This document shows positions 9,891 to 34,844 of a DNA stretch of 64,000 bases, piece after piece. Source of the stretch: a bacterium (GTDB lineage: Bacteria; Patescibacteriota; Minisyncoccia; Phycocordibacterales; JBBTRF01); assembly GCA_037130265.1 (NCBI GenBank), contig JBAXTI010000002.1:26870-90869 (forward strand). The letters are read 5' to 3'. The notes under the pieces were generated by a model. It was not told where the DNA came from. It worked only from the letters and a program-made list of their open reading frames with translations, and ran no database searches. Position numbers and translations under genes: made by a program. How positions within the stretch are numbered: the stretch's first letter is position 1; each line of letters begins with the position of its first letter.

Positions 9891-10721
9891 CTACTTCCGC
9901 CACAGATACAGCGCGATTGGGAAGTAGTAGCTATTTTTGAATGTCTCTGCGATTTGAAAATTGAAATCACGATCAGCACCACGACCCATGAAAGACGGCC
10001 AGACTCTATTTTTAAGCTTTCTGAATTGCACTTTTTCTATGACCTCGCGCTTGAACATGGAGACACCAGCGGTGCCAGGGTAAGGTGATACGTTGCCGAA
10101 GAAGAGCTTGTTGAGCAGGCGCAGGCGTTTGTAGTGAAAGTGAGTCAATTCATTCAGGTGTGGAGAGATCTTGGCGACCAAACCTTTGGCTTTTTGTGAG
10201 AGCTTATAAATATCCGCTGGTCCAAGGATGTTACCGTCTATTTTGTATTCCGCTTTTGTGCCGACCAGATCTTCTTTGAAGCGTATGTAATCGGTAGTGA
10301 TATGTGTCGCGTTGTGTTTGATGAGAAGGTCGTGTTGAATCTCCAATCGGTTTAGTAGGGATGCATCATCGCCGTCTTGGAAGGTGATCAATTCGCCGCA
10401 CGCTTTGGCGAAGCCAAAATTGCGCGCGGCGTAACCGGCGTTGGTGTTTCGTTTCAGTATCGGATCGAGACGATCGACATCGTCGCTGGGTAAAGCATAG
10501 TAGTGGATCCGCGGATCTTCTTTTGATATTGCTTCCACAACCCGCCTCGTGTCGTCGATGCTATTGTCGTCCACCACGATCACCTCCATGTTCGTGTACG
10601 TCTGTCGAATGATTGATTCGATAGCTGTTTTGATCGTCGCACCATTGTTGTGCGCGGGAACAATGACCGAGATCAGTGGTCTTGCTGGAGTTGTCGCGGT
10701 ACTCGTCGAATCATTTTTCAT
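9891..10721 (-). CDS. family 2 glycosyltransferase
   Basis: 'ISVIVPAHNNGATIKTAIESIIRQTY..EVIVVDDNSIDDT' and 'FQDGDD' are the GT2 DXD region. Confidence 0.8.
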   Translation of the reverse strand: MKNDSTSTATTPARPLISVIVPAHNNGATIKTAIESIIRQTYTNMEVIVVDDNSIDDTRRVVEAISKEDPRIHYYALPSDDVDRLDPILKRNTNAGYAARNFGFAKACGELITFQDGDDASLLNRLEIQHDLLIKHNATHITTDYIRFKEDLVGTKAEYKIDGNILGPADIYKLSQKAKGLVAKISPHLNELTHFHYKRLRLLNKLFFGNVSPYPGTAGVSMFKREVIEKVQFRKLKNRVWPSFMGRGADRDFNFQIAETFKNSYYFPIALYLWRK

Positions 10722-12181
10722 GGGCGTAGTATATCATCAATGAATTGGCCGTAGGCGAAGGAAAAATGCTCTTTCGTGTGATGTTCTCGGACATAGTTCC
10801 AAGCAGCGCGCGCCATCTTTTCGAGCGTTTCCGGCGCTGTTTTTTCGATGGCACGCGCCTGGCGACAGATCGAATCTACTGTCGGCTTTTCTAGAATAAT
10901 CGCCGGTGCTTCTTCCAGTAAACCCGTCTGCTTGGTGACGATCGGAAACACGCCGGCGTGCATCGCCTGAATCACCGCCCCTGAAGTGCCTTCTGAGGCC
11001 GATGGGTAGATGAGGGTAGCACATGTATTTGCGATTGCGATGAATGTTGTATTTCCGACTACCATGTCCCCAGCCTTGTCTATCCTCGGTCGCGGATAGC
11101 AAGAGATGTTCGGTAATGTCAGTTCCTGAGCGTACGTCGATCGAAACTCTTTTTCGTATGTCGCAGGACCAACAATATGCAAGTGCAAATCCGGCATGGT
11201 CGCAAATGCTTCCACTACTAGATCGAGACCTTTGAGAATAGCGCCACCACCGCTGAAAAAGAGGAAGTGTTTTCGGGCTTCTGCGAAATTCTTGCTCGAG
11301 ATCTCAGAGATTTCAAATGTCTGTGTGACCGATATCGGAATATGTCGGATCGGCTTGTTGAATCGTGCGAACGTCGCGTGCACTGTTTTGTTGCCGAAGC
11401 CTTCGAGAAAATCGGCGTAAGCGGGGTTGTTTAGTCCAGCCTCGACTCTTTGTGCAGGTATAATAACGCCATGCCGCTGCTTCAGGTCGGCGAGTCGCGC
11501 GGCTTCAGCGGCATTCTGAAAGCCGCTCTCCGATGAAGTGATATGCATCACTTTTTTGCACGAAGCCTGAAGGGGTGAGGTGCCGTTGGCACTGGCGGTA
11601 CACCACCGCTCCAGATTTTGGCGGACATCGACGACGACGTTGTACGGCTTTCGAGGCATAAAAGAGGTATTCGACGCATCGATTACGTCGACTTCATACC
11701 CTCGCATCGAAAAGAGTCGCGCAATCTCGGAACATTCCCAATAGTTGGTGTGCGGGTCGGTGAACCTCTGCCAAGGAAGCAATGAAAAAGGGCCGGTGAG
11801 ATAGGATAAGAGCACTGTACCACGTCTCTGTGTCTTCGTGTGAATCGTTACCGTGCCATACAGTCGCCTGCGAACCTTGTTTCGATAAGTGATGAAGACT
11901 CGATAGTACCATTTTAGCCGTTCGAAGTGCACAGTGTCACTTTTTATCCATCGACGGATCTGCTGCCTGATTAGTGTTACTTGCGAACGAAAAATTTTCT
12001 CATAAAAAGCGTGGCCATATTCTTTGGAGAGCGTGACCCCGGTCGGCGTGCGCAGGCCATTGGCGACCACGAATGGTTGTTGAGGCCACCACGCCCATAT
12101 CTCCGCGAACACTTTTTTCGTATATTCCGGTCTACAGAAAATGATAAAAGCGACCGGTGAGGTGTTTTTATTCGGCGACAT
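10718..12181 (-). CDS. GT4-type (GT-B fold) glycosyltransferase with N-terminal extension
   Basis: The C-terminal 'YPSASEGTSGAVIQAMHAGVFPIV' is the GT4 EX7E-type motif. There is a 4-nt overlap with the downstream GT2 gene and a 14-nt overlap with the upstream asnB, suggesting an operon. Confidence 0.75.
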   Translation of the reverse strand: MSPNKNTSPVAFIIFCRPEYTKKVFAEIWAWWPQQPFVVANGLRTPTGVTLSKEYGHAFYEKIFRSQVTLIRQQIRRWIKSDTVHFERLKWYYRVFITYRNKVRRRLYGTVTIHTKTQRRGTVLLSYLTGPFSLLPWQRFTDPHTNYWECSEIARLFSMRGYEVDVIDASNTSFMPRKPYNVVVDVRQNLERWCTASANGTSPLQASCKKVMHITSSESGFQNAAEAARLADLKQRHGVIIPAQRVEAGLNNPAYADFLEGFGNKTVHATFARFNKPIRHIPISVTQTFEISEISSKNFAEARKHFLFFSGGGAILKGLDLVVEAFATMPDLHLHIVGPATYEKEFRSTYAQELTLPNISCYPRPRIDKAGDMVVGNTTFIAIANTCATLIYPSASEGTSGAVIQAMHAGVFPIVTKQTGLLEEAPAIILEKPTVDSICRQARAIEKTAPETLEKMARAAWNYVREHHTKEHFSFAYGQFIDDILRP

Positions 12182-13958
12182 GATATTTTTTGTGAGACTG
12201 CAACCAGATCTCTAGGCAGTAGAGCACCCAAATCTTGTAATTATATTCGTCACGGCCCTCATCGAAAAAGTGGTGGAGCATTTGATCTACGAACAGTTTA
12301 TTCAAGAAGGAAAATACCTCAGCCTGCGGATTGCCGAGCGTCTTTCGCACCTCTGCCTTGAAGCCGCCGGCGCGCAACCACTTTTTTACCGGCGCGCCAA
12401 AGCCCTGCTTGCGTCGATGTACGAACTCCTTCGGCATTACTTCGCCGAGGAGGTCTTTCAGAATGCGCTTATACATCACGTTGTTCGTCTTGTATTCTTC
12501 CGGCAGGTTATAGACATATTCAGCGAGTTTATGATCCAAAAAAGGCGAGCGGATCTCGAGCGAATTCATCATGCCCGCGCGGTCTGCCTTCACCAAAAGT
12601 AGGCCGGGCAGGTAGGTGGTGAGGTCGAACATATTTATTTTTTCAGCGGATGAAAGTTTCGAGTCTTTTACCTGCGAATTGAGGATGCTGATTTTGCTGG
12701 CGCACGAAGACGCAACCTTCCACAATTGCTTTCGCTCCGACGGGCTGAACACGCACACCATCTGTAAATAGCCTGACAAGGGATTCTGGAACATTTTTTC
12801 CACAAAGTTCTTTCGATACGACAAATTCTTGTGCCGAGTGTACCAGCCGTAGCCTAAAAAGAGTTCGTCTGCGCCGTCGCCGGACAGCGCCACTTTCACC
12901 TTGCTTGCCGCGAGACGTGATACTAGAAATTGCGGAAAATCCGAAGAATCAGCATGCGGCTCGTCGAAGTAGGCGATAGTCGAACGTAATTCATGGATCG
13001 CATCGTCTTTCGCTTGCAGCGGGTAGTGGTCCGTACCGATCTTCTTCGACGCCTCGAGTGCAAAGGGAAGTTCGTTGATGTAGTCCTGGTAGCCGACAGA
13101 AAAGGTTTTGATCGGCGCTTTCGAAAATGACTGCGCAATGTGGGTGACCAAGGTCGAGTCCACACCGCCCGACAGGAACGAGCCGATCTCGACGTCCGCA
13201 ATCATACGCTTTTTTACCGCTGCAGTGAGTAGGGTGCGCACCGTCTCGCGCGCCTCTTCATAAGTTGGGATTTTCTTTGTCCGTTTTTCCAGCTGCCAAT
13301 ATCGGGAAATTGAAAGTTTGCCTGAGTCCACAGTCGCCTGCGATGCTGGCGGCAAAGTATGCACATTCTTGTACACGGTCCTCCATGGTGGAATGTACAT
13401 GAGGGTTAAGTAGTCATCGAGCGCGCTTGGGTCGAGAACACCCTTGACCATGCCACTTTCGAAGATTGCCTTGATTTCCGAGGCAAAAATTAGCGCGCCG
13501 TGTTCATCGTGCGCATAATAGAGCGGTTTTTTGCCGAAGCGGTCGCGCGCCAAAAAGAGTCGCTGCTTCGCTTCGTCCCAGATCGCGAAAGCGAACATAC
13601 CTTCCAAATGGATCGGGCAGTCCTCGCCGTACTCCTGGTACGCCTTCAAAATGACCTCGGTGTCGGAGTTTGTCGAAAAAACGTGGCCTTTCGCAGTAAG
13701 TTCAGTGCGTAGTTCGCGATAGTTGTAGATCTCACCGTTGAAAGTGATCGTGAGCGGCGCTTTGTTGTCGCGCATTGGCTGATGTCCACCGGAGAGGTCA
13801 ATGATCGAGAGGCGAGTCTGGGCGAGGATGCATTGATCGAATTGCACAATCCCTTTGTCGTCCGGACCTCTCTTTGCCAAAGTGCCGAGCATCCGGGCGA
13901 GCGCCGCGTCGTCGTAGCTTTCAAGACTGATGCCGCTGATGCCGAGGATGCCGCACAT
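12168..13958 (-). CDS. asnB: asparagine synthase (glutamine-hydrolysing) family amidotransferase, full length
   Basis: The N-terminus 'MCGILGI' carries the Ntn Cys2. The motifs 'RLSIIDLSGGHQPM', 'ITFNGEIYNY' and PP-loop 'SGGVDSTLV' are present. This is the second AsnB paralog in the window. Confidence 0.9.
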   Translation of the reverse strand: MCGILGISGISLESYDDAALARMLGTLAKRGPDDKGIVQFDQCILAQTRLSIIDLSGGHQPMRDNKAPLTITFNGEIYNYRELRTELTAKGHVFSTNSDTEVILKAYQEYGEDCPIHLEGMFAFAIWDEAKQRLFLARDRFGKKPLYYAHDEHGALIFASEIKAIFESGMVKGVLDPSALDDYLTLMYIPPWRTVYKNVHTLPPASQATVDSGKLSISRYWQLEKRTKKIPTYEEARETVRTLLTAAVKKRMIADVEIGSFLSGGVDSTLVTHIAQSFSKAPIKTFSVGYQDYINELPFALEASKKIGTDHYPLQAKDDAIHELRSTIAYFDEPHADSSDFPQFLVSRLAASKVKVALSGDGADELFLGYGWYTRHKNLSYRKNFVEKMFQNPLSGYLQMVCVFSPSERKQLWKVASSCASKISILNSQVKDSKLSSAEKINMFDLTTYLPGLLLVKADRAGMMNSLEIRSPFLDHKLAEYVYNLPEEYKTNNVMYKRILKDLLGEVMPKEFVHRRKQGFGAPVKKWLRAGGFKAEVRKTLGNPQAEVFSFLNKLFVDQMLHHFFDEGRDEYNYKIWVLYCLEIWLQSHKKYHVAE

Positions 13959-13962
13959 AGGA

Positions 13963-15246
13963 TTATGGTTTTTGGGTAAATTGGAAATCGAACATTATTT
14001 TGGTCTGCGGAGGCGGAAGCTTCTTTGTGCGGTAGAATCCGTTGTTATCGAGGTTTATTACGGTCGCATCGAGGACTTTGTCAAAGACCTCGGAGTGCAT
14101 ACTGTCTGATGCCATGAAAAGGCTGAGCAAGTACTCGCCGCTCTGGAAATTGATATTTTTGACTTCCACCGAGATCTCTCCTTCGCCCGGTCGAAAATCC
14201 AGCCTCTGCTCGAGGACGTTGTTGGTGATGTTGGTGAGGTCTTCACCCTTGGTATTTTTGATATCGATGGATATCTTGGTGTCCTTGAACGTCTCATTCG
14301 TTTTATTGAAATAGGCGATGTCTAAAACGAGCGAGCCTTTTTCGTTCAAACCGCCACCTCGCAACTCGCATGAAGTGAAGCGCACCTTGCCGCTCCCTTT
14401 GCGGTCCTTGCGCGCACTGAGGTCCGCTTCGCCGAGTTCTTTTCGGGTGTGGAGGTAGAAGTCGATGACGTCCTTGGTGGAACCGACCATCTTCACCTTG
14501 CCGCCTTCTATGAGCACGCACTTGCTGCACAGTTTTTCAATCGCCGCCATGTTGTGGCTAACAAATAGAATGGTGCGACCCGTCTCCCTCACCACCTCTC
14601 CCATCTTGCCAAGACACTTCTTTTGGAAATCGGCATCACCGACGGCGAGCACTTCATCTACGAGTAAAATATCCGGCTCCATGTGTGCGGCAACAGAAAA
14701 GGCGAGGCGGACATACATGCCGCTGGAGTAATAGCGGACGGGCGTGTCGAGGAATTTTTCGACGCCAGAGAAGGCGACAATTTCGTCGAATTTTTTGGCG
14801 ATCTCATTCCGCGGCATGCCCAAGATCGCGCCATTCAAAAAGATATTTTCTCGTCCGGTCAATTCAGGATGAAAACCGGTACCCACCTCAAGCAGGGAAG
14901 CCACGCGGCCGCGCATGATGATCTCGCCTTCAGTCGGCGGAGTGATGCCTGTGAGGATTTTCAGTAAAGTGGATTTGCCCGCGCCGTTGGAGCCGATGAT
15001 GCCGATGATCTCGCCTCGCTGGACATGTAAATCGATATTTCTTAGTGCCCAAAACTCCTCTTTGGTATCCATACCGATCGCGGCTTTCGCTCTCAGCTTC
15101 ATGTAACGAAAAGGGTTTTTGAACATCGATGCGAGCACATCGCGTAACGCGACATAGCCGCCGCGATTGTGGCTGATTACATACTTCTTGCCGACGCCCT
15201 TAATTTCGATAATTGGTTGCATATTTTTTGGTGTGATTTCAATCAT
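13963..15246 (-). CDS. wzt: polysaccharide ABC exporter ATP-binding protein (Wzt/TagH-like) with C-terminal glycan-binding domain
   Basis: Walker A 'GSNGAGKST', the signature 'YSSGMYVRLAF' and Walker B 'ILLVDE' are present. An extra ~170-aa C-terminal beta-rich domain is typical of Wzt. The gene lies 9 nt downstream of the permease gene. Confidence 0.85.
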   Translation of the reverse strand: MIEITPKNMQPIIEIKGVGKKYVISHNRGGYVALRDVLASMFKNPFRYMKLRAKAAIGMDTKEEFWALRNIDLHVQRGEIIGIIGSNGAGKSTLLKILTGITPPTEGEIIMRGRVASLLEVGTGFHPELTGRENIFLNGAILGMPRNEIAKKFDEIVAFSGVEKFLDTPVRYYSSGMYVRLAFSVAAHMEPDILLVDEVLAVGDADFQKKCLGKMGEVVRETGRTILFVSHNMAAIEKLCSKCVLIEGGKVKMVGSTKDVIDFYLHTRKELGEADLSARKDRKGSGKVRFTSCELRGGGLNEKGSLVLDIAYFNKTNETFKDTKISIDIKNTKGEDLTNITNNVLEQRLDFRPGEGEISVEVKNINFQSGEYLLSLFMASDSMHSEVFDKVLDATVINLDNNGFYRTKKLPPPQTKIMFDFQFTQKP

Positions 15247-15255
15247 GGTATTTGC

Positions 15256-16092
15256 CTACAGGACATCAGCGAAATATTGTTCGACTTTTTTGAAATATAC
15301 CGTGCCGATCACTAGTAGGACGAGGCAAGCAGCAAAAGAGATCGACACGAGCTGCCAATTGATTGGCGCAGTTTCCAAAAGGGTGGCGCGCGCGGTCTGA
15401 ATGACCCCCATCATCGGATTGAGGGCGAGGAGCCAAGAGTATTTGCCAGCAATGCTCGCCGGATAGATCACCGGGGTCACGAAGAGCAGGGTTTGGATGA
15501 AGAATGGCAACACAAATCGCACATCGCGATATTTCACATTGAGCGCCGCGAGGAAAAGCCCGCCGCCGACCGCCGCCATAAAGGTGATCACTAGGAGGAG
15601 TGGGATGATTGCAATGCTGGCAAGGCCGGGAACATAGTCATAGTAGATCATCATGCCGGCGAGGATCACTGCGGCAATGGCGAAGTCTACGAGTTTGGTC
15701 GCCACTGATGAAAGCGGTAAAATTAATCGAGGAAAGTATACTTTAGTGATGATCGATTTATTGGAAATAAGAACGCTGCTGGTATCACTCAGTGCACCGG
15801 AGAAGAATTGCCAGAACAACAGGCCGACATACACGAAGATCGGGTAAGGCACGCCGTCGGAGGGAATGTTGGCAAGCTTACCGAAGAACAAGCTGAACAC
15901 CACCATGGTGATGAACGGCTGGAAGATCGCCCAGAGCGCGCCGATGCTGGTCTCTTTGTAGCGCACTTTCAGATCGCGCCAAGTGAAAAAGTAGAGCAGT
16001 TCTTTGTAGCGCCAGACCTCCTGTAAATCTTCGAAAGTTAGCACCTTTTTTGGGCGGATGAAGGTCTCGATTGTCTCAGTGTGTGTGTCCAT
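15256..16092 (-). CDS. wzm: ABC-2 type polysaccharide exporter permease (Wzm-like)
   Basis: It has six predicted TM segments. 'RDLKVRYKETSIGALWAIFQP' is the ABC-2/Wzm consensus. Confidence 0.85.
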   Translation of the reverse strand: MDTHTETIETFIRPKKVLTFEDLQEVWRYKELLYFFTWRDLKVRYKETSIGALWAIFQPFITMVVFSLFFGKLANIPSDGVPYPIFVYVGLLFWQFFSGALSDTSSVLISNKSIITKVYFPRLILPLSSVATKLVDFAIAAVILAGMMIYYDYVPGLASIAIIPLLLVITFMAAVGGGLFLAALNVKYRDVRFVLPFFIQTLLFVTPVIYPASIAGKYSWLLALNPMMGVIQTARATLLETAPINWQLVSISFAACLVLLVIGTVYFKKVEQYFADVL

Positions 16093-16122
16093 TGGTGTGT
16101 TGCGAAAAAGAATATTGAAATA

Positions 16123-16407
16123 TTACCACCTATTGAGCTTTTCCACGACCCCCTTTTTGGCGCTCAAGTAAGTGCGGGCGGCACCGCGTTCGAGTTCTGG
16201 AGAAACGAGGCGGAGTATCTCCTTGCCGAGAATACGGTATTGGCCGCCGACTTTGTTGGCACGCAACAAACCACGCTTCAGGAGGCGCTTGATTGTACTT
16301 TCGCTGATCCGCAAGATATCCTGTGTTTCGTTGGTCGTGTAGATACCAAGCGGCGCGACCCCAGTGACACCATTTTTAACGGAGACATTTTGTGACCCTT
16401 TGCTCAT
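16123..16407 (-). CDS. small helix-turn-helix DNA-binding protein (excisionase/MerR-superfamily HTH)
   Basis: 'DILRISESTIKRLLKRGLLRANKVGGQYRI' is an excisionase-family HTH. The ATG at 16407 is preferred over the ORF-track start. It is divergent from the GT2-GtrA gene. Confidence 0.5.
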   Translation of the reverse strand: MSKGSQNVSVKNGVTGVAPLGIYTTNETQDILRISESTIKRLLKRGLLRANKVGGQYRILGKEILRLVSPELERGAARTYLSAKKGVVEKLNRW

Positions 16408-16427
16408 ATATATTAATAATAACAAAA

Positions 16428-16457
16428 ATGTCAAAACATGTCAAAAGGTGTCAAGAT
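16428..16457. promoter_or_regulatory. three tandem 10-bp direct repeats (ATGTCAAAAC / ATGTCAAAAG / GTGTCAAGAT), candidate operator of the adjacent HTH protein
   Basis: Read directly. A fourth copy, ATGTCAAAA, overlaps the ATG of the GT2-GtrA gene at 16521. An inverted copy, GACATTTT, lies at 16384-16391 inside the 5' end of the HTH gene. Confidence 0.4.
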
Positions 16458-16520
16458 ACATTCAACCTCCAACTTCAATAATTGTCCCCTTCTTCCAAAT
16501 CTGCTATTCTAAAGCCTCAT

Positions 16521-17669
16521 ATGTCAAAATTGTCGATCATTATCCCTTGTTTCAACGAGGTGCGGACTATAGATGTCCTCATTGCTAGGGTGGAAGCGGC
16601 ACCCCTACCGAAAGGCTGGCAGAAGGAGCTGGTGATTGTTGATGATTACTCTACTGACGGGACTCGAGGTAAGCTTACGGCGTACGAAGGTAAACATACT
16701 GTCGTCTATCGAGAAAAGAATGGTGGCAAAGGCGCCGGTTTGAAGAGCGGCATGTTGAAGGTGTCGGGTGACTACGTCATCATTCAAGATGCCGATTTTG
16801 AATACGACCCCAACGAGTACCAGCTAATTTTGGGCGAGTTGGAGAAAAGCGGTCGAAAAAATGCAGTGGTTTTCGGCTCGCGCCTCATTGGGCAGAATAA
16901 ATTTTTTAACGCCGTCTATTTTTATGGCAATCGGACGATGACCGCGGCCTTCAATTTTCTGTTTGGTAGCCATATCACCGACATCACCACTTGCTACAAG
17001 CTCTTTCCTCGAGAAGCAGTACCTTTTCTCATGCGCTGGTCGGAGGATGGTTTTGTGTACGATGCAGTGTATCTGACCTACGAGCTTTTCCGTTTTGACA
17101 ATCACATCATTGAAGTGCCAATCACCTACACCGCGCGTACGCGAAAAGAGGGGAAGAAGGTCAATTGGAAGCACGGAGTGAAGGCATTCTACGCTATGGC
17201 TCATGTGAAGGTTGTCGAATCGATGATTGGCCGACCGATTGCCGATCTCTTTGCAAAATACGCCCAAATCGTGCGCTTTTTCATCTCCGGTGGCGCAGGG
17301 GTATTCACCAACCTGTTTTTACTCTACGTCCTCACGGAACTCGTGCATATTCACTATCTCGTATCAGCAACCGTCTCGTTCCTCGCAGCTGTTTGCGTGA
17401 ATTTTTTGATGCAAAAATTCTGGGCCTTCAAAGACGACCATGCCGACGCCGAGAAAGACGACCGCGAGCAGAAAGCCACATATATCCAGGCGATCCATTT
17501 TTTTGTAGTGCAGCTGGTGAATCTCATTGCGAATACTGGCCTGCTATATGTTGCTGTGACTCATCTCGGTTTACAGTACCTCTGGTCCGAAGCCATCATT
17601 TCCGCGTTACTTGCCTCCGTGACCTATTTTGTAAGTAAAAAATACATCTTTTCCAGCCAGAAAAATTAA
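16521..17669 (+). CDS. polyprenyl-phosphate glycosyltransferase (GT2, DPM1/ArnC/GtrB-like) fused to a C-terminal GtrA-like membrane domain
   Basis: 'LSIIIPCFNE', 'VIVDDYSTDGT' and 'IIQDADFEYDP' are GT2 signatures. The C-terminal ~130 aa have four hydrophobic helices typical of GtrA. The ORF-track start at 16482 is a TTG; the ATG at 16521 is preferred. Confidence 0.8.
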   Translation: MSKLSIIIPCFNEVRTIDVLIARVEAAPLPKGWQKELVIVDDYSTDGTRGKLTAYEGKHTVVYREKNGGKGAGLKSGMLKVSGDYVIIQDADFEYDPNEYQLILGELEKSGRKNAVVFGSRLIGQNKFFNAVYFYGNRTMTAAFNFLFGSHITDITTCYKLFPREAVPFLMRWSEDGFVYDAVYLTYELFRFDNHIIEVPITYTARTRKEGKKVNWKHGVKAFYAMAHVKVVESMIGRPIADLFAKYAQIVRFFISGGAGVFTNLFLLYVLTELVHIHYLVSATVSFLAAVCVNFLMQKFWAFKDDHADAEKDDREQKATYIQAIHFFVVQLVNLIANTGLLYVAVTHLGLQYLWSEAIISALLASVTYFVSKKYIFSSQKN

Positions 17670-19405
17670 CGCACCTTTCGAATCGTGTACAAGCTACCGA
17701 GGTGTTCGGCTTGTAAGAATTCTCTCAGAGGATGTGGCTCTTGGGGTGTCCAGCGGTAGCGGCCTTCTGAATGGAAACAGGTTTGTTTCTCGAGTTCAGT
17801 TGCGTTACAAGGTCTTTCGTCATCTTGCGTGATGAGCCAGATTGTTTTTGTTCCGAGATTCGTCTCCGGTGAAGTAAGCTTTTTCATTATAGTACCGAGC
17901 TCTTCTTGGTTGTATGCGAGGTAGGTGAGCGGCTTAAAGGCGACCTGCTCCTTCACAACGCCTGGATGCTGCATCAAAAAATCGAAACGGCCCATGCTTT
18001 GACGTTTTGGATCAAGTATGAGCATGGATCGGTCGTTCACTGGCAAGGTCATACGCAGCGCTGACCAATGTTCGACGAAGGCAATGCTTGGATCGTTGTA
18101 TTTTTTCATCAGCGTTTCGAGGAGTAGTTTTTCAGTCGACGGTTTCCAGTACAAAGAGATGGATTGAGTACCGATCACGAGGAAGAGGGTCGAGGCTAGC
18201 ACGATACCGCTCCAGCGTATGCACACACCCTGTTCGGAGATCCGTGCATCGAGTAATTCTGCCAATACCGCGATTGAAAAGGCACAGGCGGTGGTGAAAA
18301 TGACACTATACCGTGGTGCTGATCCAAAACCGATGGCTATATGGAAGATCAGATATACAAAAATCGGATGAGTGCATGCAATGAGTAGATACAGTCGGTC
18401 CTTTTTTTGGTTGGTTGCGCTATCGTCGAATTTTTTCATCAAGAAATAAATACCGATTAGCGCCAGGACAATATAGAGGAAGACTAGCGGCTGGCTCTGG
18501 ACTGCGGTGATCGCCGGCTTGTAGATGCGCGAGAGCCAGTCAATATGAACATCATCGCTTTTGTAGGAAATATTCGAAAATGAGCCACTCATCCAATTCA
18601 TGAAGATCGCGCGATAGATGAAGGAGATCTGCGTTATGCCGGCCACGATCACCCAGTACCAGTATTTTTTTACGTGCCGCCAGAGGTCGGCGAAGGTGAA
18701 GTGTTTCAGTGCGAGCGCGTAGATGCCGATGAGACCGATCGAAGCGGCGCCGACATAATTTTGGCAGAATGCGAGCACACCCATCCAGAAGAGCAATGCT
18801 ACGTATCGGTCCTTCTTCATAAATGGCTGGCCGAGGTGGCTCTGGTGTGTCTGATAATACTGTTGGGCGATAAATAGCGCGCTCGCCACCGCCATCAGCA
18901 TGAGGTGCGTTACCCAGACCTTTGCGGTGTGGAGCATCTGTAGCAGTAATACGTCAGAAAGTAGGAGTATGGCAAACAACGAGAGGGTGAGACCGAGTGT
19001 TTGCGGAATTTGCTTCTTTCGAAAGAAGAAGATACTGCCTGCCAGTGCGAAAAGAGCGGTTGCGCCGTTGATGAGGCGTAAAAAATGCAGTAATTCGCCA
19101 GTGTGAAGGGCGATATACACTTTGGTTGTCAGGATAGAGAAGCCCGACTTCAATACGATAGCAGTGATTATTGGGAGGATGGCCAAGGTGTCGATGTAAG
19201 TTTGCACGCCACCATAATAGTTGCCCGAATAGGAGAATTCCCAGCCCGGGAGGGTGCCTTTTTGGATCGCCGAGAGCGAGCTTGTGAGAAAGTAACTCTC
19301 ATCGACGATGATGTCGGGGTTATTGCCGTAGGGATTTGGTGAGAGGGTTGTTACGACAATAAACATTGCCACCAGTGCGACAAGGGTATGTTGTATATTC
19401 TTCAT
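17666..19405 (-). CDS. GT-C fold polytopic membrane glycosyltransferase (PMT/ArnT, GT39/GT83-like)
   Basis: It has more than 10 predicted TM helices in the first ~430 aa, then a soluble C-terminal domain. It is convergent with, and overlaps by 4 nt, the lipid-sugar synthase gene, which is the classic donor-synthase/GT-C pairing. The ATG at 19405 (MKNIQHT...) is preferred over 19570. Confidence 0.6.
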   Translation of the reverse strand: MKNIQHTLVALVAMFIVVTTLSPNPYGNNPDIIVDESYFLTSSLSAIQKGTLPGWEFSYSGNYYGGVQTYIDTLAILPIITAIVLKSGFSILTTKVYIALHTGELLHFLRLINGATALFALAGSIFFFRKKQIPQTLGLTLSLFAILLLSDVLLLQMLHTAKVWVTHLMLMAVASALFIAQQYYQTHQSHLGQPFMKKDRYVALLFWMGVLAFCQNYVGAASIGLIGIYALALKHFTFADLWRHVKKYWYWVIVAGITQISFIYRAIFMNWMSGSFSNISYKSDDVHIDWLSRIYKPAITAVQSQPLVFLYIVLALIGIYFLMKKFDDSATNQKKDRLYLLIACTHPIFVYLIFHIAIGFGSAPRYSVIFTTACAFSIAVLAELLDARISEQGVCIRWSGIVLASTLFLVIGTQSISLYWKPSTEKLLLETLMKKYNDPSIAFVEHWSALRMTLPVNDRSMLILDPKRQSMGRFDFLMQHPGVVKEQVAFKPLTYLAYNQEELGTIMKKLTSPETNLGTKTIWLITQDDERPCNATELEKQTCFHSEGRYRWTPQEPHPLREFLQAEHLGSLYTIRKVR

Positions 19406-19466
19406 TTCAGAATTGTAGCATGGCTGATATATGCACGGTGCCGCTCCAGTGTTGTATAATGCTTCA

Positions 19467-20102
19467 ATGCATACTGTGGCATGGAAAATCTGGCGCGGGC
19501 AGTCTCTGGCGAGGATCTTGATGAACCGAGCGTTGTCAGCATACACGATCACCGGAAGGGTGGTGGACATTGGCGGTGGACGTTCGCCGGATTATTTTGA
19601 GTATCTGAAAAAAGAAAAATTCACATCGATCGAGCTGGTAGACTTTTCTTTCTCAAGGATCGATTTCGAAAAGGATGCTCTACCATTTGCTGATGCGAGC
19701 GTCGATACAGTGCTCTGCATGAATACCCTTGAGCACGTCTACAATTATCGCTTTCTTACCGCCCAGATGTACCGCGTCCTTAAAAAAGACGGCAAGCTGA
19801 TCGGATTCGTGCCCTTTCTCATAAACTATCATCCCGACCCCCACGATTTTTTCAGGTATACCAAGGAATCCCTGACCAAGATATTTATTGAAGCTGGTTT
19901 TGCCGATATCTCGATTCGCTCTGTCGGTGGTGGGTCTTTTTTGGTGAACTACAATATGATCATGTTATCGCTGCCGAAGGTATTGCGCGTACTGATGTTC
20001 CCTTGTTATCTCATTCTCGACAGGCTTTTTTTGAAATTTAGGCCAAAGGCGGCTGAGCGCTATCCGCTCGGCTACGTCTTTGTCGCCACCACGCCAAAAT
20101 AG
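19467..20102 (+). CDS. class I SAM-dependent methyltransferase
   Basis: 'VVDIGGGRS' is motif I. 'VDTVLCMNTLEHV' and 'LKKDGKLI' are present. TATAAT at 19455-19460 lies 6 nt before ATG 19467, so the transcript may be leaderless. Confidence 0.7.
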   Translation: MHTVAWKIWRGQSLARILMNRALSAYTITGRVVDIGGGRSPDYFEYLKKEKFTSIELVDFSFSRIDFEKDALPFADASVDTVLCMNTLEHVYNYRFLTAQMYRVLKKDGKLIGFVPFLINYHPDPHDFFRYTKESLTKIFIEAGFADISIRSVGGGSFLVNYNMIMLSLPKVLRVLMFPCYLILDRLFLKFRPKAAERYPLGYVFVATTPK

Positions 20103-20135
20103 TCCTGAGCCATCAATATTCGTTATTTTTCGTGT

Positions 20136-21077
20136 ATGCTTAATGCTATGTCCTCACAATTCTACCCAAGAATTTCCATCGTTACCGTATGTTTTAATCG
20201 TGCGCAGTATATCGCCGAAACCATCGAGTCGGTGCTTTCTCAGGGTTATCCCAATTTGGAATACATCGTTATCGATGATAATTCGACCGACGGGAGCTGG
20301 GAAGTCATTCAGAAATACAAAGACAAACTCGCATACATTGAGCAAATTCCTGGAAAGCGGGATACGCCAGTGGAGTCCCTCAACTATGGCCTTTCAAAAA
20401 CAACCGGCGAGATCATGGCCACGATAAATGATAAGAATATTTACATGCCAAAAAGCCTTTTTGCTGTGGCCGGAGTATTTTCGGCTTTCCCTCAAGTAGA
20501 ATGGCTTACGGGTGTGGGTCTCATTATAGACAAGGGCGGTATTATTACTAATATTATCCCGATACGGAAGGGTTTTTATGAGCATCTTATCAATCTGCCT
20601 TGGAACATCCAGCACGAGTCCACTTTTTGGAGGCGTTCACTCTGGAAACGTACCGGTTCTCAGTACGACCCAAAGTATTCCTGGGTCTTCGACATGGGAT
20701 TATGGCGAAAATTCTTTTTTGAGGCACCACTATATCATCTCAATACGGTGGTGGGAGCCTATCGAAAGTTGCCTTCGGCTCGTACAACACTGAACAAGGA
20801 AGAATTCTATCATTACTGTGCTCTTGCACGCCAAGACATGCGCACGCAAGCAAAAAAAACAGATCTCGCATATGCAGAATTGTATCGAGCACTTAGATAT
20901 TTCAAGCCAATCTTGCGAAACATTCCCGACGCTGTATACGCAAGAATTCCTTTTTTAAAAAAAATGTCACACGATTCGATTGCCTTTCAAAACGTTACAA
21001 TTGATGACTTCGGTCCGGGCCACTTAAGGTTCCGTCGGTACAAAAGAAACCCATTCCGCACCATGTTTCCATGGTAA
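20136..21077 (+). CDS. family 2 glycosyltransferase, paralog of the C-terminal domain of the 1677-3875 gene
   Basis: 'ISIVTVCFNRAQYIAETIESVLSQ..EYIVIDDNSTDGS'. The conserved 'VEWLTG...FWRRSLWKR' block is shared with the 752-aa protein. Confidence 0.8.
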   Translation: MLNAMSSQFYPRISIVTVCFNRAQYIAETIESVLSQGYPNLEYIVIDDNSTDGSWEVIQKYKDKLAYIEQIPGKRDTPVESLNYGLSKTTGEIMATINDKNIYMPKSLFAVAGVFSAFPQVEWLTGVGLIIDKGGIITNIIPIRKGFYEHLINLPWNIQHESTFWRRSLWKRTGSQYDPKYSWVFDMGLWRKFFFEAPLYHLNTVVGAYRKLPSARTTLNKEEFYHYCALARQDMRTQAKKTDLAYAELYRALRYFKPILRNIPDAVYARIPFLKKMSHDSIAFQNVTIDDFGPGHLRFRRYKRNPFRTMFPW

Positions 21078-21089
21078 TTGCCTAGTATA

Positions 21090-22073
21090 TTAATAGAGCA
21101 TGATGGTCAGGTATTTGTTGGGGAAGTATGTTTTTTTGTTGAGATAGTAGTTCCAGTCCATTACCTCATTTTTTGCAATAACGTGTGGAATATCACCGTA
21201 GTAAGCCGCAAAATGGCTTAATGTACTGTCTGAGCCAATTACCGCATTGCACGAAGCCAGTGTAAAAAGGTCGGTGACAACATCATTCTTGCTCACGGTT
21301 ACATTGAGTTCGTAAAACAGCGAAAGGTCAACGGGTCCGTCCGAGGCGACGACGAATCCGACCTCCTGAGCACTCTTTCCGTAGTTCCGTAAATATTCTC
21401 TGAGGATTTCGACAAATCTCACCTGATCAACGAAATATTTTCCGTTCTTGAAGGTCTTGTAGTCGCTCTGACGGATGTGAACGCCTACGACGTGCGCGTA
21501 TTTTGAACGCAAAGGTTCAAGTAGGCTATCGACTTTTTTAGAAATACTCATCGTTGGGGCAATTATCCCCACTATTTTATGGTGATGCTTCCGTATACCG
21601 TCAGGATTACGAAATACACCACCATTTATCGCAGAAAAAAAAAGTATATCCTTATTCGAACCCTCCATTTTTTCAAGCAGATCGATTTTTTTAGAAGTTG
21701 CAACTGTCGGTGGTAGGTAATAGGGGTCAGTTGAACTTTCGTTCGAGTACACGATTGAATTTTTTCGAAAAAAAGTGATTGGCCTAACTACCACAGTTTT
21801 GTATCCGGTTCGCCAAAGACGGACGAACAATGATCCTTTTCTAAAATTTCTCAATCCAATTCGACGAAATGGCACGGAGAAAAAACGAAGTGTCCAGTTT
21901 TTAGAACAGAAGCCGTGAAAAGATGAAGTATGCTCAAAGAAAGAGTAATTTATACAAGGGTAATTTCGTTCAATGGCGTATGCTAAAATACTAATGTAAT
22001 TCCAGAGCTGGTTGGCTAACTCCCCGCCGTCGTGTTGGAGAATAATGACTCTCTTCAAATTCTTTTGCCTCAT
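21090..22073 (-). CDS. GT11-like alpha-1,2-fucosyltransferase family protein
   Basis: 'VGVHIRQSDY' matches HxRRGDY. 'GSDSTLSHFAAYYG' matches the GT11 C-terminal SxFxxxAAWL motif. The N-terminus 'VIILQHDGGELANQLWNY' resembles the GT11 'GGLGNQMFQY' start. The ATG at 22073 is preferred over the upstream ORF-track start at 22181. Confidence 0.65.
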   Translation of the reverse strand: MRQKNLKRVIILQHDGGELANQLWNYISILAYAIERNYPCINYSFFEHTSSFHGFCSKNWTLRFFSVPFRRIGLRNFRKGSLFVRLWRTGYKTVVVRPITFFRKNSIVYSNESSTDPYYLPPTVATSKKIDLLEKMEGSNKDILFFSAINGGVFRNPDGIRKHHHKIVGIIAPTMSISKKVDSLLEPLRSKYAHVVGVHIRQSDYKTFKNGKYFVDQVRFVEILREYLRNYGKSAQEVGFVVASDGPVDLSLFYELNVTVSKNDVVTDLFTLASCNAVIGSDSTLSHFAAYYGDIPHVIAKNEVMDWNYYLNKKTYFPNKYLTIMLY

Positions 22074-22205
22074 TTCGCTCTTCCCAACTAGCCACTTCAA
22101 AGGATTTTTAGACATATCCAAAAAGTATAAGGTGTATGGTCGGGTTTGTAAAATATTAAGCTCGGACTGAAAAGGTGGCACCTTCGGCTTCGGTGCGGTA
22201 TAGTT

Positions 22206-24488
22206 ATGCGCATGAATACTGAATATATTGCAAAATGGGTGGCGCGCATTGGCGTGTTCCTGCTCTTGGTGGTTCCGTTTGTTGTGGCCGACGGCAGTCT
22301 TTTTCCCAACTCATTCTTCCCGTTTATTACCGGCAAGGCATTCGTCTTCCGTATCCTTACGGAGATTATTTTGGCAGCGTGGCTCGTCCTCGCCTTTGTA
22401 GATGAACATTATCGCCCTCGCTCATCCTGGATCGCTCGGGCGGTTGGCATCTTCCTCCTTGTAATGTTTATTGCCGACCTCGGCAGTGCCAATCCATTTA
22501 AGAGTTTTTGGTCTAACTTCGAGCGCATGGAGGGTTTTGTTACCTTAGCGCACCTCGGCGCTCTTTTTCTTGCGGCCGGCTCGCTTTTGAAGACTGAAGC
22601 ACTGTGGAATCGTTTTTGGCAGAGCTCTTTGGTGGCGAGCGTGCTGATGGCGGCATACGGTTTCTTCCAGCTCGCTGGTTGGGCGGCGATCCATCAGGGG
22701 AGTACACGTCTTGATGCGGCACTTGGCAACTCTGCGTACCTCGCGGTGTACATGATCTTCCACGTCTTTATTGCGATTTTCCTCTTGCTTCGATACGTAA
22801 AAAAGTATGCAGGCACTACGCAGTGGTCGGCATGGTTGCCTTCTTTGTACGGCGTCGTAGCCCTGATTGATTTTATTGTTTTGTACTATACGGCAACACG
22901 AGGAGCTTTAATCGGTGTTGTCGCCGGCGTTCTTGTGATCGCTCTTGGATTGACCTTGGGGACTTTCTTTTCCTCGACATTGTCCGACAAAGAGCAGGTG
23001 TTGTTGCGAAAAATCGGTGGAAGCATTTTGATTGTTGTCCTACTCGGTATTGGCGCACTCTTTCTTGGTAAGAACAGCGACTTTGTGAAAAAGAGCGAGG
23101 TACTTTCTCGATTTAGTAATCTCGCTACTTTCAAAGTTGCGTCAATTGCTGAAGGCGAAGGGAAGTCCCGTTTCAATATCTGGTCAATGGCATTAGATGG
23201 GGTAAAAGAGCGACCGATCCTTGGTTGGGGACAGGAAAGTTTCAATTATCTCTTCTACAAGTACTACTCACCAGAGATGTACGACCAGGAGCCGTGGTTT
23301 GATCGCGCACACAACGTGTTTCTCGACTGGCTTGTGGCCGGTGGTTTTCTTGGCCTGCTTTCATACCTGTCGATTTTCGCAGCACTCATTGTATTGGTCT
23401 GGAAAAAACACATGCCATTCAGTTTGCCAGAGCGTCTCACTCTCATGGCATTGGTGGTTGCGTATTTTGTCCACAATATCTTCGTGTTCGATCAGCTCGT
23501 GAGTTATCTCTACTTCTTCCTTGTTCTCGCGTACATTCATGCGCTGTATCATCACACCCGCGAAGGGCAGGGTACGACCAAGATGGGTGAGTGGTGGAAG
23601 TCTCATCAAAAAACCCTTCAGGAAGGCGGTACCCCTATCGTTCTTGTGCTGTTTGTCGTGGTCGTGTGGTCGGTAAATTGGAGTGGTTTCGTGCAGGCGA
23701 CTGGCTTGATCGATGCTTTGACCCCACAGAAAGAAGGCTTGGCGAAAAATATCGGGATCTTCAAGGATCTGCTCGATCGACGCACTATGGGATTGTACGA
23801 GACACGCGAGCGTTTGGCGGAAGTGGCGGTGCAGATGAGTCGGGCCAATGTTGACCAGACACAAAAGACGGAGATCTTCAACCTTGCGTATGCTGAACTG
23901 AAAAAGCAGACCGAAGAGATTCCAACTGATGTTCGATATCTGTATTTCATCTCGTCGTTCCTGTCTTCGTATCAGCGATATTCCGAGGCGTTGCCGTATG
24001 CGATGAAGGCGGTGGAGTTGTCGCCAAAGAAGCAAATGCTCCTCATGAATCTCGGCAGCATTTATTTGAACATTGGCCAGGTGAAGGAAGCGTCGGCAGC
24101 ATACAAGACTGCATTTGATCTTGAGCCGAAGTATGAAGAGGCGCGATTGTCGTATGCGTTGTCTGCGGTATATGCGGGCGATGAAGTGCTGCAAAAACAG
24201 CTTCTCCAGTCGGTGTACGGAACAACCTTGATGAGCGATCAGCGATTCTTGCAGGCATATATCAATACAAAACAGCCGCAGAAAGCGATTCATGCTTTGA
24301 GTGCCTTGGTGGCGTCTACGGTTCCGGACGATATTCAACTTCGTCTGAAGTTGGCGTCGCTGTATCTGCAGATTGGAGACAAGGCGGGGGCGATAGCTCA
24401 GGTGAAAAAGGCTGGTGAGCTCCATCCGGAATTTGCTCAGGAGGTGCCAGGGTATCTGAAGGAGATTGCGAACTACAAAGGGAATTGA
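22206..24488 (+). CDS. O-antigen ligase / Wzy_C-family polytopic membrane protein with C-terminal TPR repeats (WaaL/PglL-like)
   Basis: About 12 TM helices are predicted. 'RAHNVFLDWLVAGGFLGLLSYL' matches the Wzy_C catalytic-loop region. The C-terminal ~250 aa contain TPR-like repeats (AYKTAFDLEPKYEEARLSYA...). Confidence 0.75.
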   Translation: MRMNTEYIAKWVARIGVFLLLVVPFVVADGSLFPNSFFPFITGKAFVFRILTEIILAAWLVLAFVDEHYRPRSSWIARAVGIFLLVMFIADLGSANPFKSFWSNFERMEGFVTLAHLGALFLAAGSLLKTEALWNRFWQSSLVASVLMAAYGFFQLAGWAAIHQGSTRLDAALGNSAYLAVYMIFHVFIAIFLLLRYVKKYAGTTQWSAWLPSLYGVVALIDFIVLYYTATRGALIGVVAGVLVIALGLTLGTFFSSTLSDKEQVLLRKIGGSILIVVLLGIGALFLGKNSDFVKKSEVLSRFSNLATFKVASIAEGEGKSRFNIWSMALDGVKERPILGWGQESFNYLFYKYYSPEMYDQEPWFDRAHNVFLDWLVAGGFLGLLSYLSIFAALIVLVWKKHMPFSLPERLTLMALVVAYFVHNIFVFDQLVSYLYFFLVLAYIHALYHHTREGQGTTKMGEWWKSHQKTLQEGGTPIVLVLFVVVVWSVNWSGFVQATGLIDALTPQKEGLAKNIGIFKDLLDRRTMGLYETRERLAEVAVQMSRANVDQTQKTEIFNLAYAELKKQTEEIPTDVRYLYFISSFLSSYQRYSEALPYAMKAVELSPKKQMLLMNLGSIYLNIGQVKEASAAYKTAFDLEPKYEEARLSYALSAVYAGDEVLQKQLLQSVYGTTLMSDQRFLQAYINTKQPQKAIHALSALVASTVPDDIQLRLKLASLYLQIGDKAGAIAQVKKAGELHPEFAQEVPGYLKEIANYKGN

Positions 24489-33227: not shown

Positions 33228-34844
33228 ATGATACAAAAAAAGACCCAAGTCACCCTCATTATCCTCGACGGTTGGGGCTATCGAGAAGACTCGAAAGATA
33301 ATGCAATCGCATCGGCAAAGACGCCGAACTTCACGCGACTGTGGAATGCCTCGCCACATGCGTTGCTCCAGGCGAGCGGTGAATATGTCGGTTTGCCAGA
33401 TGGGCAGATGGGCAATAGTGAGATCGGCCACGCCACGATTGGTGCGGGAAAAGTGATCGACACCGAGCTTGTGCGTATCGGCAAGGCAATCCGTACTGGC
33501 GAGTTCGACAAGAATCCTGCTTTCATCGCGCTCTTCGATCATGTCAAAAAGAATCACTCGACACTGCACGTGCAGGGGCTGCTTTCCGATGGCGGAGTAC
33601 ATAGCCATCAGGAGCACCTTTACGCATTTTTGAAGGCCGCGAAGAAAAATGGTGTCACTCGTGTTGCTATTCACGCTTTCACCGACGGTCGAGACACGCC
33701 ACCTCAGAGTGCGGCGAAGTATTTGAAGAATCTCGAAAAGGTTCTCGCCGAAGTCGGCGTTGGTTTTATCGCGACAGTGTCTGGCCGATTCTACGCGATG
33801 GATCGCGACAACAATTGGGACCGTCTCGCCAAGGCAGAGCAGGCGATGTTTGAATGCAAGGGCAATGTCTGCACGATCAAGCCGTCGGCACATGTGGAGG
33901 CGCTCTACAAGCAGGGCAAGCTCGACGAACATCTTGAGCCGATCGTGTGCATGGGTCTCAGTGCCGATGGGTCCGAGGGTTCAGGGCCAGGTGCAAACGG
34001 CTGTGCTATCGAGGAAAACGACGCGGTCCTCTTCTTCAACTTCCGCGCTGACCGTGCACGCATGCTCTCACAGAAAATGCTCGAGAAGCAAGCGAAGAAC
34101 AATGTCTGCTTCGCTACTTTTACCGAATATTCGACTGAGTTCAAATGTCTCGTGGCGTTTCCGCCAGCGACCATCGAGACTACACTTGCCGGCGAAATTT
34201 CCAAAGCAGGTCTGACCCAGGCCCACATCGCGGAGACTGAAAAATTCCCACATGCTACCTACTTCCTCAACGGCGGACGCGAGGAGCCGTACGCAGGCGA
34301 GCGACATATTATGCTCGCGAGCCGTAAAGATGTGCCAACCCACGACCTCGCACCAAAGATGCGCGCAGAAGCTATTGCTGACAAGGCGATTGAGGAAATC
34401 AGTGCAGGTACGGACTTTATTTTCATCAACTTCGCCAATCCCGACATGGTGGGACACACGGCCAATGTTCCAGCGATCATCGAAGCGATCGAAGAGACCG
34501 ACAAACAGCTCGGCCGAGTGATGGATGCAATTGTTGCGCGTGCTGCCAAGGCGGGTACCAGAAACCTGGCGTTTATTACCGCCGATCACGGCAATGCGGA
34601 GATCAACATTGACCCAATCACCGGCACCAAGCACACTTCGCATACGTTGAGCCCGGTCCCTGCGATTTTGGCTGGCGCAGTGGGGCAGGGCGCGGTTGGA
34701 CAGGCGAGTACGACAAATGACTCGAAAAACGCCGCATCTTTGCCAAAAATCCACGATGGTGGCCTCTCCGATATTGCACCGACTATTCTAGCACTCATGA
34801 ATCTTCCACAGCCTGCGACAATGACAGGAAAAAGTCTGCTATAA
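33228..34844 (+). CDS. gpmI: 2,3-bisphosphoglycerate-independent phosphoglycerate mutase
   Basis: 'LIILDGWGY', 'GNSEIGHATIGAGKV', 'SDGGVHSH' and 'ITADHGNAE' are present. It has a BPG-independent PGM N-terminal domain. Confidence 0.9.
   Translation: MIQKKTQVTLIILDGWGYREDSKDNAIASAKTPNFTRLWNASPHALLQASGEYVGLPDGQMGNSEIGHATIGAGKVIDTELVRIGKAIRTGEFDKNPAFIALFDHVKKNHSTLHVQGLLSDGGVHSHQEHLYAFLKAAKKNGVTRVAIHAFTDGRDTPPQSAAKYLKNLEKVLAEVGVGFIATVSGRFYAMDRDNNWDRLAKAEQAMFECKGNVCTIKPSAHVEALYKQGKLDEHLEPIVCMGLSADGSEGSGPGANGCAIEENDAVLFFNFRADRARMLSQKMLEKQAKNNVCFATFTEYSTEFKCLVAFPPATIETTLAGEISKAGLTQAHIAETEKFPHATYFLNGGREEPYAGERHIMLASRKDVPTHDLAPKMRAEAIADKAIEEISAGTDFIFINFANPDMVGHTANVPAIIEAIEETDKQLGRVMDAIVARAAKAGTRNLAFITADHGNAEINIDPITGTKHTSHTLSPVPAILAGAVGQGAVGQASTTNDSKNAASLPKIHDGGLSDIAPTILALMNLPQPATMTGKSLL

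Follow-up and report, generated by a model that had tools for sequence, protein, structure and literature searches.

A conserved array of TTGACA-containing direct repeats as a putative autoregulatory operator at the promoter of a Patescibacteria HTH_17 gene

Upstream of a gene encoding a 94-aa protein of the HTH_17 family, in a 64-kb stretch of patescibacterial DNA (contig JBAXTI010000002.1, positions 26,870 to 90,869; hereafter the window, with positions counted from its first nucleotide), three 10-bp direct repeats adjoin one another without gaps (Table 1). Read on the minus strand, on which the HTH_17 gene lies, the repeat unit is TTGACA(C/T)nTT, each unit containing the hexamer TTGACA. Judging from its sequence context and its conservation in relatives, we consider it fairly probable that this array represents an autoregulatory operator of the direct-repeat type for the operon composed of the HTH_17 gene and the following wzm- and wzt-like genes, bound head-to-tail by the HTH_17 protein with a repressive outcome. 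The first-pass annotation of the window had recognized three back-to-back 10-bp repeats, which the coordinates, Tandem Repeats Finder (period 10, 3.3 copies, score 43) and a find_repeats run listing identical units bear out, and had correctly described the flanking genes, which are the HTH_17 gene on the minus strand and a GT2 + GtrA fusion on the plus strand; it missed the TTGACA in each repeat on the HTH_17 strand.

A promoter scan of the minus strand places the array within the promoter of the HTH_17 gene itself. The predicted promoter (11/12) combines TTGACA and TATTAT, the -35 and -10 hexamers of a sigma-70-type promoter, with a spacer of 17 nt, inside the range of 16–18 nt, and a TG one base upstream of the -10 hexamer. 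On this prediction, copy 2 is the -35 element and copy 3 is part of the spacer, the array being embedded in the gene's own -35 and spacer region. As the -10 hexamer ends 8 nt before the HTH_17 ATG and a Shine-Dalgarno sequence is absent, the HTH_17 mRNA is probably leaderless. No second promoter starting from copy 3 became apparent: reading of the sequence gave no acceptable -10 at 16–18 nt from it, and the promoter scan reports none.

Of the repeat features, the tandem arrangement alone exceeds chance, and it is conservation that provides the evidence. Upstream regions were gathered from the loci of a protein look-up and from a metagenome scan with the family alignment; units were accepted with up to two mismatches to TTGACAC and chained at distances of 9–11 bp. 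At least two units were present in 69 of 71 distinct Patescibacteria upstream regions, and three or four in 46 of the 71, with a spacing of exactly 10 bp in 119 of 127 unit pairs. The unit consensus of the family is TTGACACCTT, of which 2–4 copies precede the orthologous HTH_17 genes; the extended consensus reads TTGACACCTTTTGACAC followed by TGnTAnnAT, or, in an alternative notation, aatTGAcACCttTTGACACCTTTTGACACtTttg.TataaT. A MAFFT alignment of ten diverse loci showed copy 2 TTGACA, copy 3 TTTGAC and TGnTAnnAT to be invariant, and conservation reached past the hexamer to TTGACAC + CTT. The penultimate copy coincides with the -35 element, with the best -10 at 16–18 nt, in 45 of 67 loci, and in 43 of 67 related loci the -10 ends 6–9 nt before the start codon. 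Judged from these alignments, the layout in the window is the canonical architecture of the family, its copy 1 aligning with a first copy that is more degenerate in relatives (ATGACA, TTGACC or GTGAAC). Conservation of the copy in the spacer (1.3–2.0 bits per position) equals or exceeds that of the one forming the -35, which calls for an explanation beyond promoter function because RNA polymerase does not read that position. The first-pass annotation had made its interpretation dependent on conservation of the repeats in related genomes, and in the orthologous regions they are indeed kept.

Of 88 related loci, 69 carry the exact dyad TTGAC-N5-TTGAC ahead of the orthologous gene. In 399 kb of HTH_17 loci, counting both strands, there are 84 exact dyads, 81 of which lie at most 160 nt upstream of the HTH_17 gene and on its strand; the remaining three comprise two in L153, at -217 and -227 of the HTH_17 gene, and one in L162, 1 kb upstream. 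By comparison, unrelated control loci contained 2 exact dyads in 629 kb, this set consisting of the loci of GT2-GtrA protein matches in GTDB genomes, 35–48% identical and from other phyla. The GT2-GtrA protein had also been tried as a route to close relatives and was of no use for synteny, its best matches being those of 35–48% identity in other phyla. The displaced dyads in L153 (1523-1547) and L162 (1961-1975), which are the only ones away from the HTH_17 start (~220 nt and ~1 kb upstream, respectively), may be explained by a long leader, by wrong assignment of the start codon or by a rearrangement.

Within the 64-kb window, the exact dyad is confined to the two overlapping dyads of the array. 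Dyads with one mismatch were found four times versus 5.3 expected by chance, those at 10134 and 61764 being intragenic, and isolated single units remain at background (TTGACAC, 8 versus 9.9 expected). The 9-mer ATGTCAAAA is present 4 times versus 0.94 expected, a number that was reached in 1 of 100 shuffles; a further ("fifth") site, at 33541, falls within a gene and out of its reading frame. The first-pass annotation had suggested checking whether this 9-mer marks a regulon, and none is visible in the window by dyad, one-mismatch dyad or 9-mer scans; in the sequence available, the array marks a single promoter.

Two outlying copies had been annotated in addition. The fourth copy, at the start of the GT2-GtrA (synthase) gene, is an exact ATGTCAAAA at 16521-16529, where it constitutes the start codon plus two codons (Met-Ser-Lys); the match stands, whereas its presumed meaning does not, because this is a lone unit that codes for Met-Ser-Lys in a gene absent from relatives, and it looks like chance. 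The HTH_17 gene of L150 begins with the same nine bases. The inverted copy in the 5' end of the HTH_17 gene turned out to be an 8-nt complement only (GACATTTT at 16384-16391 versus AAAATGTC at 16425-16432), consisting of half a unit plus flank and residing in the codons Gln-Asn-Val; it looks like chance as well, since the codons differ and the element is gone in the three closest relatives (L082, L084, L090). The intergenic region as a whole (16408-16520, 113 nt) has a G+C content of 31% versus 49% window-wide. T4 tracts phased at 10 bp run through the array, and intrinsic curvature of the DNA is predicted from them. An Rfam covariance-model scan of 15900-16900 gave no match at E up to 1.

Table 1. 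Positions of the repeat array, the predicted promoter elements and the adjoining genes in the window.
Feature	Position	Strand	Remarks
Repeat copy 1, distal	16448..16457	-	Reads ATCTTGACAC (forward strand: GTGTCAAGAT); TTGACA at 16454..16449; position ~-45
Repeat copy 2	16438..16447	-	Reads CTTTTGACAT (forward strand: ATGTCAAAAG); TTGACA at 16444..16439, the predicted -35 hexamer
Repeat copy 3	16428..16437	-	Reads GTTTTGACAT (forward strand: ATGTCAAAAC); TTGACA at 16434..16429, within the 17-nt spacer of the predicted promoter
Extended -10, TGtTATTAT	16416..16424	-	TG at 16424..16423, hexamer at 16421..16416; TGnTAnnAT kept in relatives
Predicted transcription start	16407..16409	-	7-9 nt past the -10 hexamer; at the A of the ATG or 2 nt before it
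HTH_17 gene, 94 aa	16123..16407	-	ATG at 16407, stop codon 16123-16125; presumed array binder
wzm-like ABC-2 permease gene	15256..16092	-	Pfam ABC2_membrane; 30 nt past the HTH_17 stop codon
wzt-like ABC ATPase gene, Wzt_C domain	13963..15246	-	Domain match and synteny
Asparagine-synthase-like gene	12168..13958	-	Next on the strand; glycosyltransferase genes after it
GT2 + GtrA fusion gene	16521-17669	+	Divergent neighbour of the HTH_17 gene

The 5' end of the HTH_17 gene varies among lineages in ways that deserve separate mention. The repeats are often in frame with the gene and translate as 'HLLTPFD' (L082, L084, L090, L096, L097 and others), and gene callers can extend the open reading frame into the operator, an example in the window being a TTG-start frame of 103 aa (16123-16434). 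The gene appears to be leaderless in most lineages and leadered in some: in a minority (L128, L130, L131, L141, L144, L147, L151, L160), the repeat-promoter module is located 40–70 nt upstream of the ATG. The orthologues in L090-L092 carry a GTG start (3001 / 1592 / 3001) where relatives have the leaderless ATG. GTG is an unusual start in leaderless translation, and this lineage differs from the relatives in either its transcription start or its start codon.

The protein encoded next to the array matches Pfam HTH_17 (PF12728) with 44.8 bits versus a cut-off of 27 over residues 23-67, and stays just under the threshold of TIGR01764 'excise' (28.3 versus 28.8). The identical protein is encoded on a 165-kb metagenome contig in ENA. 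A protein search yielded 2343 homologues; among the 120 matches listed, identity to the window protein ranges from 58 to 90%, most are 82 aa long, and those that carry names are mostly from Patescibacteria/Paceibacterota. In the homologue alignment, 34 columns are invariant, among them those of the recognition helix (S-x-S-T-x-K-R) and of the wing (R-A-N-K-x-G-G-Q-Y-R); conservation extends to the C-terminal segment, with an invariant terminal Trp, and the subfamily of the window has an N-terminal extension of 12 residues. No paralogue of the gene was found in the window. The AlphaFold2 (AF2) model built from the family alignment (mean predicted local distance difference test score, pLDDT, 77.5; ~90 or more over residues 21-60) displays the strand-helix-helix-hairpin order of a winged helix-turn-helix domain (wHTH), followed by a helix of residues 61-68 and a long helix of 24 residues (70-93; pLDDT ~66-80), with the N-terminal 13 residues disordered. 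In a Foldseek search of the Protein Data Bank (PDB), the top five matches to this model were chains of BldC-DNA complexes (6ama, 6amk; root-mean-square deviation 1.3–1.7 Å over 50–51 columns, TM-score 0.73–0.84, identity 25–26%, probability 1.00, E ~1e-2), followed by RacA, NmlR, Pukovnik Xis (4j2n) and RdfS (8dgl). The first-pass description of the protein as an excisionase-type helix-turn-helix protein agrees with the Pfam match, with BldC as the best fold match and Xis-type proteins thereafter.

These structural relatives have a bearing on the array. BldC, which is close to Xis in structure, forms cooperative multimers that occupy 2–4 direct repeats of 9 bp in a head-to-tail arrangement (PMC5859096), and in phage D29 the excisionase-like protein Gp36 uses direct repeats to repress genes (PMC12266134). 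The fold class would therefore suit the geometry of the site, and the invariant recognition helix and wing match a near-invariant DNA unit. The repeats, the match to a promoter, the conservation of the array at this gene throughout the phylum, the conserved operon context and the likeness of folds are what the analysis shows; the HTH_17 protein as the binder, the head-to-tail mode and repression as the sign of regulation are what we infer. In the mechanism that we favour, protomers of the protein would line up head-to-tail on the 10-bp units, one for each helical turn, to form a cooperative multimer covering the region from -45 to -20, and the -35 and the spacer DNA would be contested between this multimer and sigma region 4. 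The outcome would be repression of its own leaderless transcript together with the co-transcribed export operon, i.e., negative autoregulation. Repression seems favoured over activation because a near-consensus promoter with optimal spacer and extended -10 needs no activator. The T4 tract in each unit, phased with the helix, recalls the reading of A/T-narrowed minor grooves by BldC. Autoregulation, raised as a possibility by the first-pass annotation, appears to be the best-supported part of its interpretation, given that the repeats are tied to the wHTH gene and that the predicted fold resembles BldC.

Several points weigh against autoregulatory repression by head-to-tail binding. Co-occurrence and an analogy of folds are what connects the protein with the site. 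The Foldseek E-values are weak owing to the short domain, and a search of PDB sequences with the family profile gave no significant match. Covariation of protein and site was not seen, both being nearly invariant, and the unit period is 10 bp versus 9 bp in BldC. The C-terminal helix, if it formed an antiparallel coiled coil as in MerR proteins, would favour palindromic sites. Finally, BldC and MerR proteins can activate by distorting DNA.

The last point leads to a variant that we consider unlikely, namely that the HTH_17 protein binds the array and activates, either by bending or untwisting DNA in the manner of MerR and BldC or through recruitment of polymerase from the copy at -45. Distortion of DNA and both positive and negative effects on its targets are documented for BldC (PMC5859096, PMC6428758), and copy 1 occupies a position at which class I/II activators bind. 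However, the core promoter is already near consensus, with its optimal 17-nt spacer and extended -10, it is devoid of the 19–20-nt spacer on which MerR-type activation depends, and occupancy of the -35 and the spacer normally blocks sigma region 4.

Quite unlikely in our estimation is an operator for a different factor, for example a response regulator of the OmpR/PhoB type, with some other role left to the HTH_17 protein. Regulators of this type bind direct repeats at 10–11 bp spacing that overlap the -35, and the architecture seen here, with direct repeats at or near the -35, is like that of a Pho box. Yet the site is strictly linked to the HTH_17 gene, also in loci whose neighbours on both sides are different, no response-regulator gene is listed in the gene tables of the neighbourhoods retrieved, and the HTH_17 protein itself belongs to a fold class known to bind direct repeats.

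Another explanation would do without any dedicated factor: the repeats would be tandem -35 boxes created by slippage duplication and retained because they offer polymerase several ways of docking. Each unit does contain the sigma-70 -35 consensus, the copy number varies between 2 and 4, and copies 2 and 3 of the window are identical at 9 of 10 positions, which suggests recent slippage. We nevertheless regard a pure promoter function as improbable. The -10 is at the right distance for one copy alone, and a start from copy 3 would fall inside the coding sequence of leaderless genes. The invariant copy in the spacer, which polymerase does not read, and conservation beyond the hexamer argue in the same direction, as does the finding that the dyad is not seen at other promoters in the 399 kb of flanks plus the 64-kb window.

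The genes on the two sides of the array differ in how they are kept. On the HTH_17 side, no minus-strand terminator-like site was found between the HTH_17 and wzm-like genes, and the two are probably co-transcribed; the closest relative, L082, has the same gene order as this side of the window. In a scripted test on the 70 loci with enough downstream sequence, a co-directional wzm homologue was present within 1.5 kb downstream of the HTH_17 gene in 29, and two more loci (L132, L149) with wzm and wzt downstream raise the number to 31/70. In ten other loci, the first downstream gene encodes a type-I ABC exporter, a GDP-mannose dehydratase, a Wzx-like flippase, an SDR, a GT1 glycosyltransferase or NeuB. 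According to a heuristic based on open reading frames, the upstream neighbour is divergent in 29 and co-directional in 22 of 51 distinct loci. From these gene orders, the conserved partner of the HTH_17 gene is the surface-glycan export/biosynthesis operon, which it always heads, not the divergent neighbour. No integrase gene was found within 6 kb on either side.

On the other side, the nearest relatives have [MurB, Wzy_C-TPR] divergent from [HTH_17, wzm, wzt, glycan genes]. In the closest relatives, L082 and L084, the HTH_17 and Wzy_C-TPR genes directly adjoin each other in divergent orientation, whereas in the window five genes intervene before the Wzy_C-TPR gene (22206-24488). This five-gene block (16521-22181; GT2-GtrA, a 634-aa membrane protein, a methyltransferase, GT2 and a GT11-like protein) is absent from L082 and L084 and, by this comparison, has the appearance of an insertion into the glycan locus that is specific to the lineage; tblastn detected a GT2-GtrA homologue near an HTH_17 gene only in the window's own contig. 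Within the block, the 634-aa multi-pass membrane protein (17666-19570, minus strand; 579 aa according to the source gene caller) has no Pfam/NCBIfam match, and its gene converges on the GT2-GtrA gene with a 4-nt overlap; it may be the GT-C-like partner assumed in the first-pass annotation.

That annotation had assigned the array mainly to control of this divergent GT2-GtrA synthase and its membrane glycosyltransferase partner. Here the array behaviour, the helical spacing and the conservation expected of an operator stand, whereas the target finds no support: although the array lies 64–93 nt upstream of the synthase ATG in the shared intergenic region, would be placed in the leader by a weak plus-strand promoter-like site (16392-16420, 9/12 in the promoter scan), and has an exact ATGTCAAAA overlapping the synthase start codon, we hold this assignment to be improbable, even if the array may have an additional local effect there, as the neighbour is specific to the window with Wzy_C-TPR in its place in the closest relatives, the upstream gene is frequently co-directional, and the fourth copy is a lone coding unit of a kind found at background frequency.

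To our knowledge, very few recognisable transcription factors exist in Patescibacteria (Candidate Phyla Radiation, CPR), and almost nothing is known of their gene regulation; in the literature available for searching, we found no description of the Patescibacteria HTH_17/repeat pair. A nearly invariant small DNA-binding protein is paired here with a nearly invariant cis-element, and the pair heads a glycan locus in dozens of lineages. This would give a concrete regulatory circuit for surface polymers that are likely relevant to host attachment, and it would extend head-to-tail binding of direct repeats, as known for BldC and Xis, to a further phylum and to an operator consisting of -35 boxes. 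In its most far-reaching form, the proposal would be that HTH_17 proteins (82–94 aa) are the phylum-wide master switch of Patescibacteria surface-glycan loci, recognizing the same hexamer as sigma region 4 and forming a BldC-like head-to-tail filament on 2–4 tandem -35 boxes in direct competition with polymerase, with 10-bp slippage (2, 3 or 4 copies depending on the lineage) tuning or switching the surface polymers that these episymbionts show to their hosts; this we put forward as a speculation and consider doubtful. On the practical side, gene annotation is affected where callers run the HTH_17 frame into the operator.

Among the known systems with which the array can be compared, plasmid iterons share with it the tandem direct repeats beside a gene for a DNA-binding protein and possible autoregulation. 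Iterons are, however, typically 17–22 bp long and flank a rep gene plus origin; the units of the window are 10 bp long, there is no rep gene, the neighbours are chromosomal glycan genes and the array is kept at chromosomal HTH_17 promoters; the array does not qualify as iterons or a replication origin ("iteron-like" in the first-pass annotation). Nor does it qualify as a classical MerR-type operator, the repeats being direct rather than palindromic and the spacer 17 nt rather than 19–20 nt long. Pho-box/OmpR sites resemble the array in that their direct repeats follow each other at roughly one helical turn and extend over the -35 region. A Pho box stands in for a poor -35 and serves activation, in contrast to the units found here, which are perfect -35 boxes in a near-consensus promoter. 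Excisionase-type recombination directionality factors (lambda Xis, Pukovnik Xis 4j2n, RdfS 8dgl, D29 Gp36) belong to the same Pfam family or fold class and form cooperative filaments on direct repeats. They differ in that the window gene is chromosomal, found phylum-wide and tied to glycan genes rather than to an integrase or mobile element. The closest likeness is to BldC, the MerR-like wHTH protein of Streptomyces: it, too, is small, its winged domain is the best structural match to the AF2 model, and its unit consists of an A/T tract together with a specific C-G pair where that of the window has a T4 tract and a GAC core. The targets of BldC are 2–4 direct repeats in promoters; the candidate site here comprises 2–4 direct units at 10 bp. 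BldC differs in consisting of the wHTH alone, with neither an oligomerisation nor an effector domain, and in recognizing a 9-bp repeat, AATTXXXX(C), whereas the window protein has a long C-terminal helix and its presumed unit of 10 bp contains the -35 consensus; furthermore, BldC governs a developmental regulon, whereas the window gene heads a glycan operon and has the array in its own promoter. By analogy, the HTH_17 protein and its array would work like a direct-repeat system of the BldC/Xis type.

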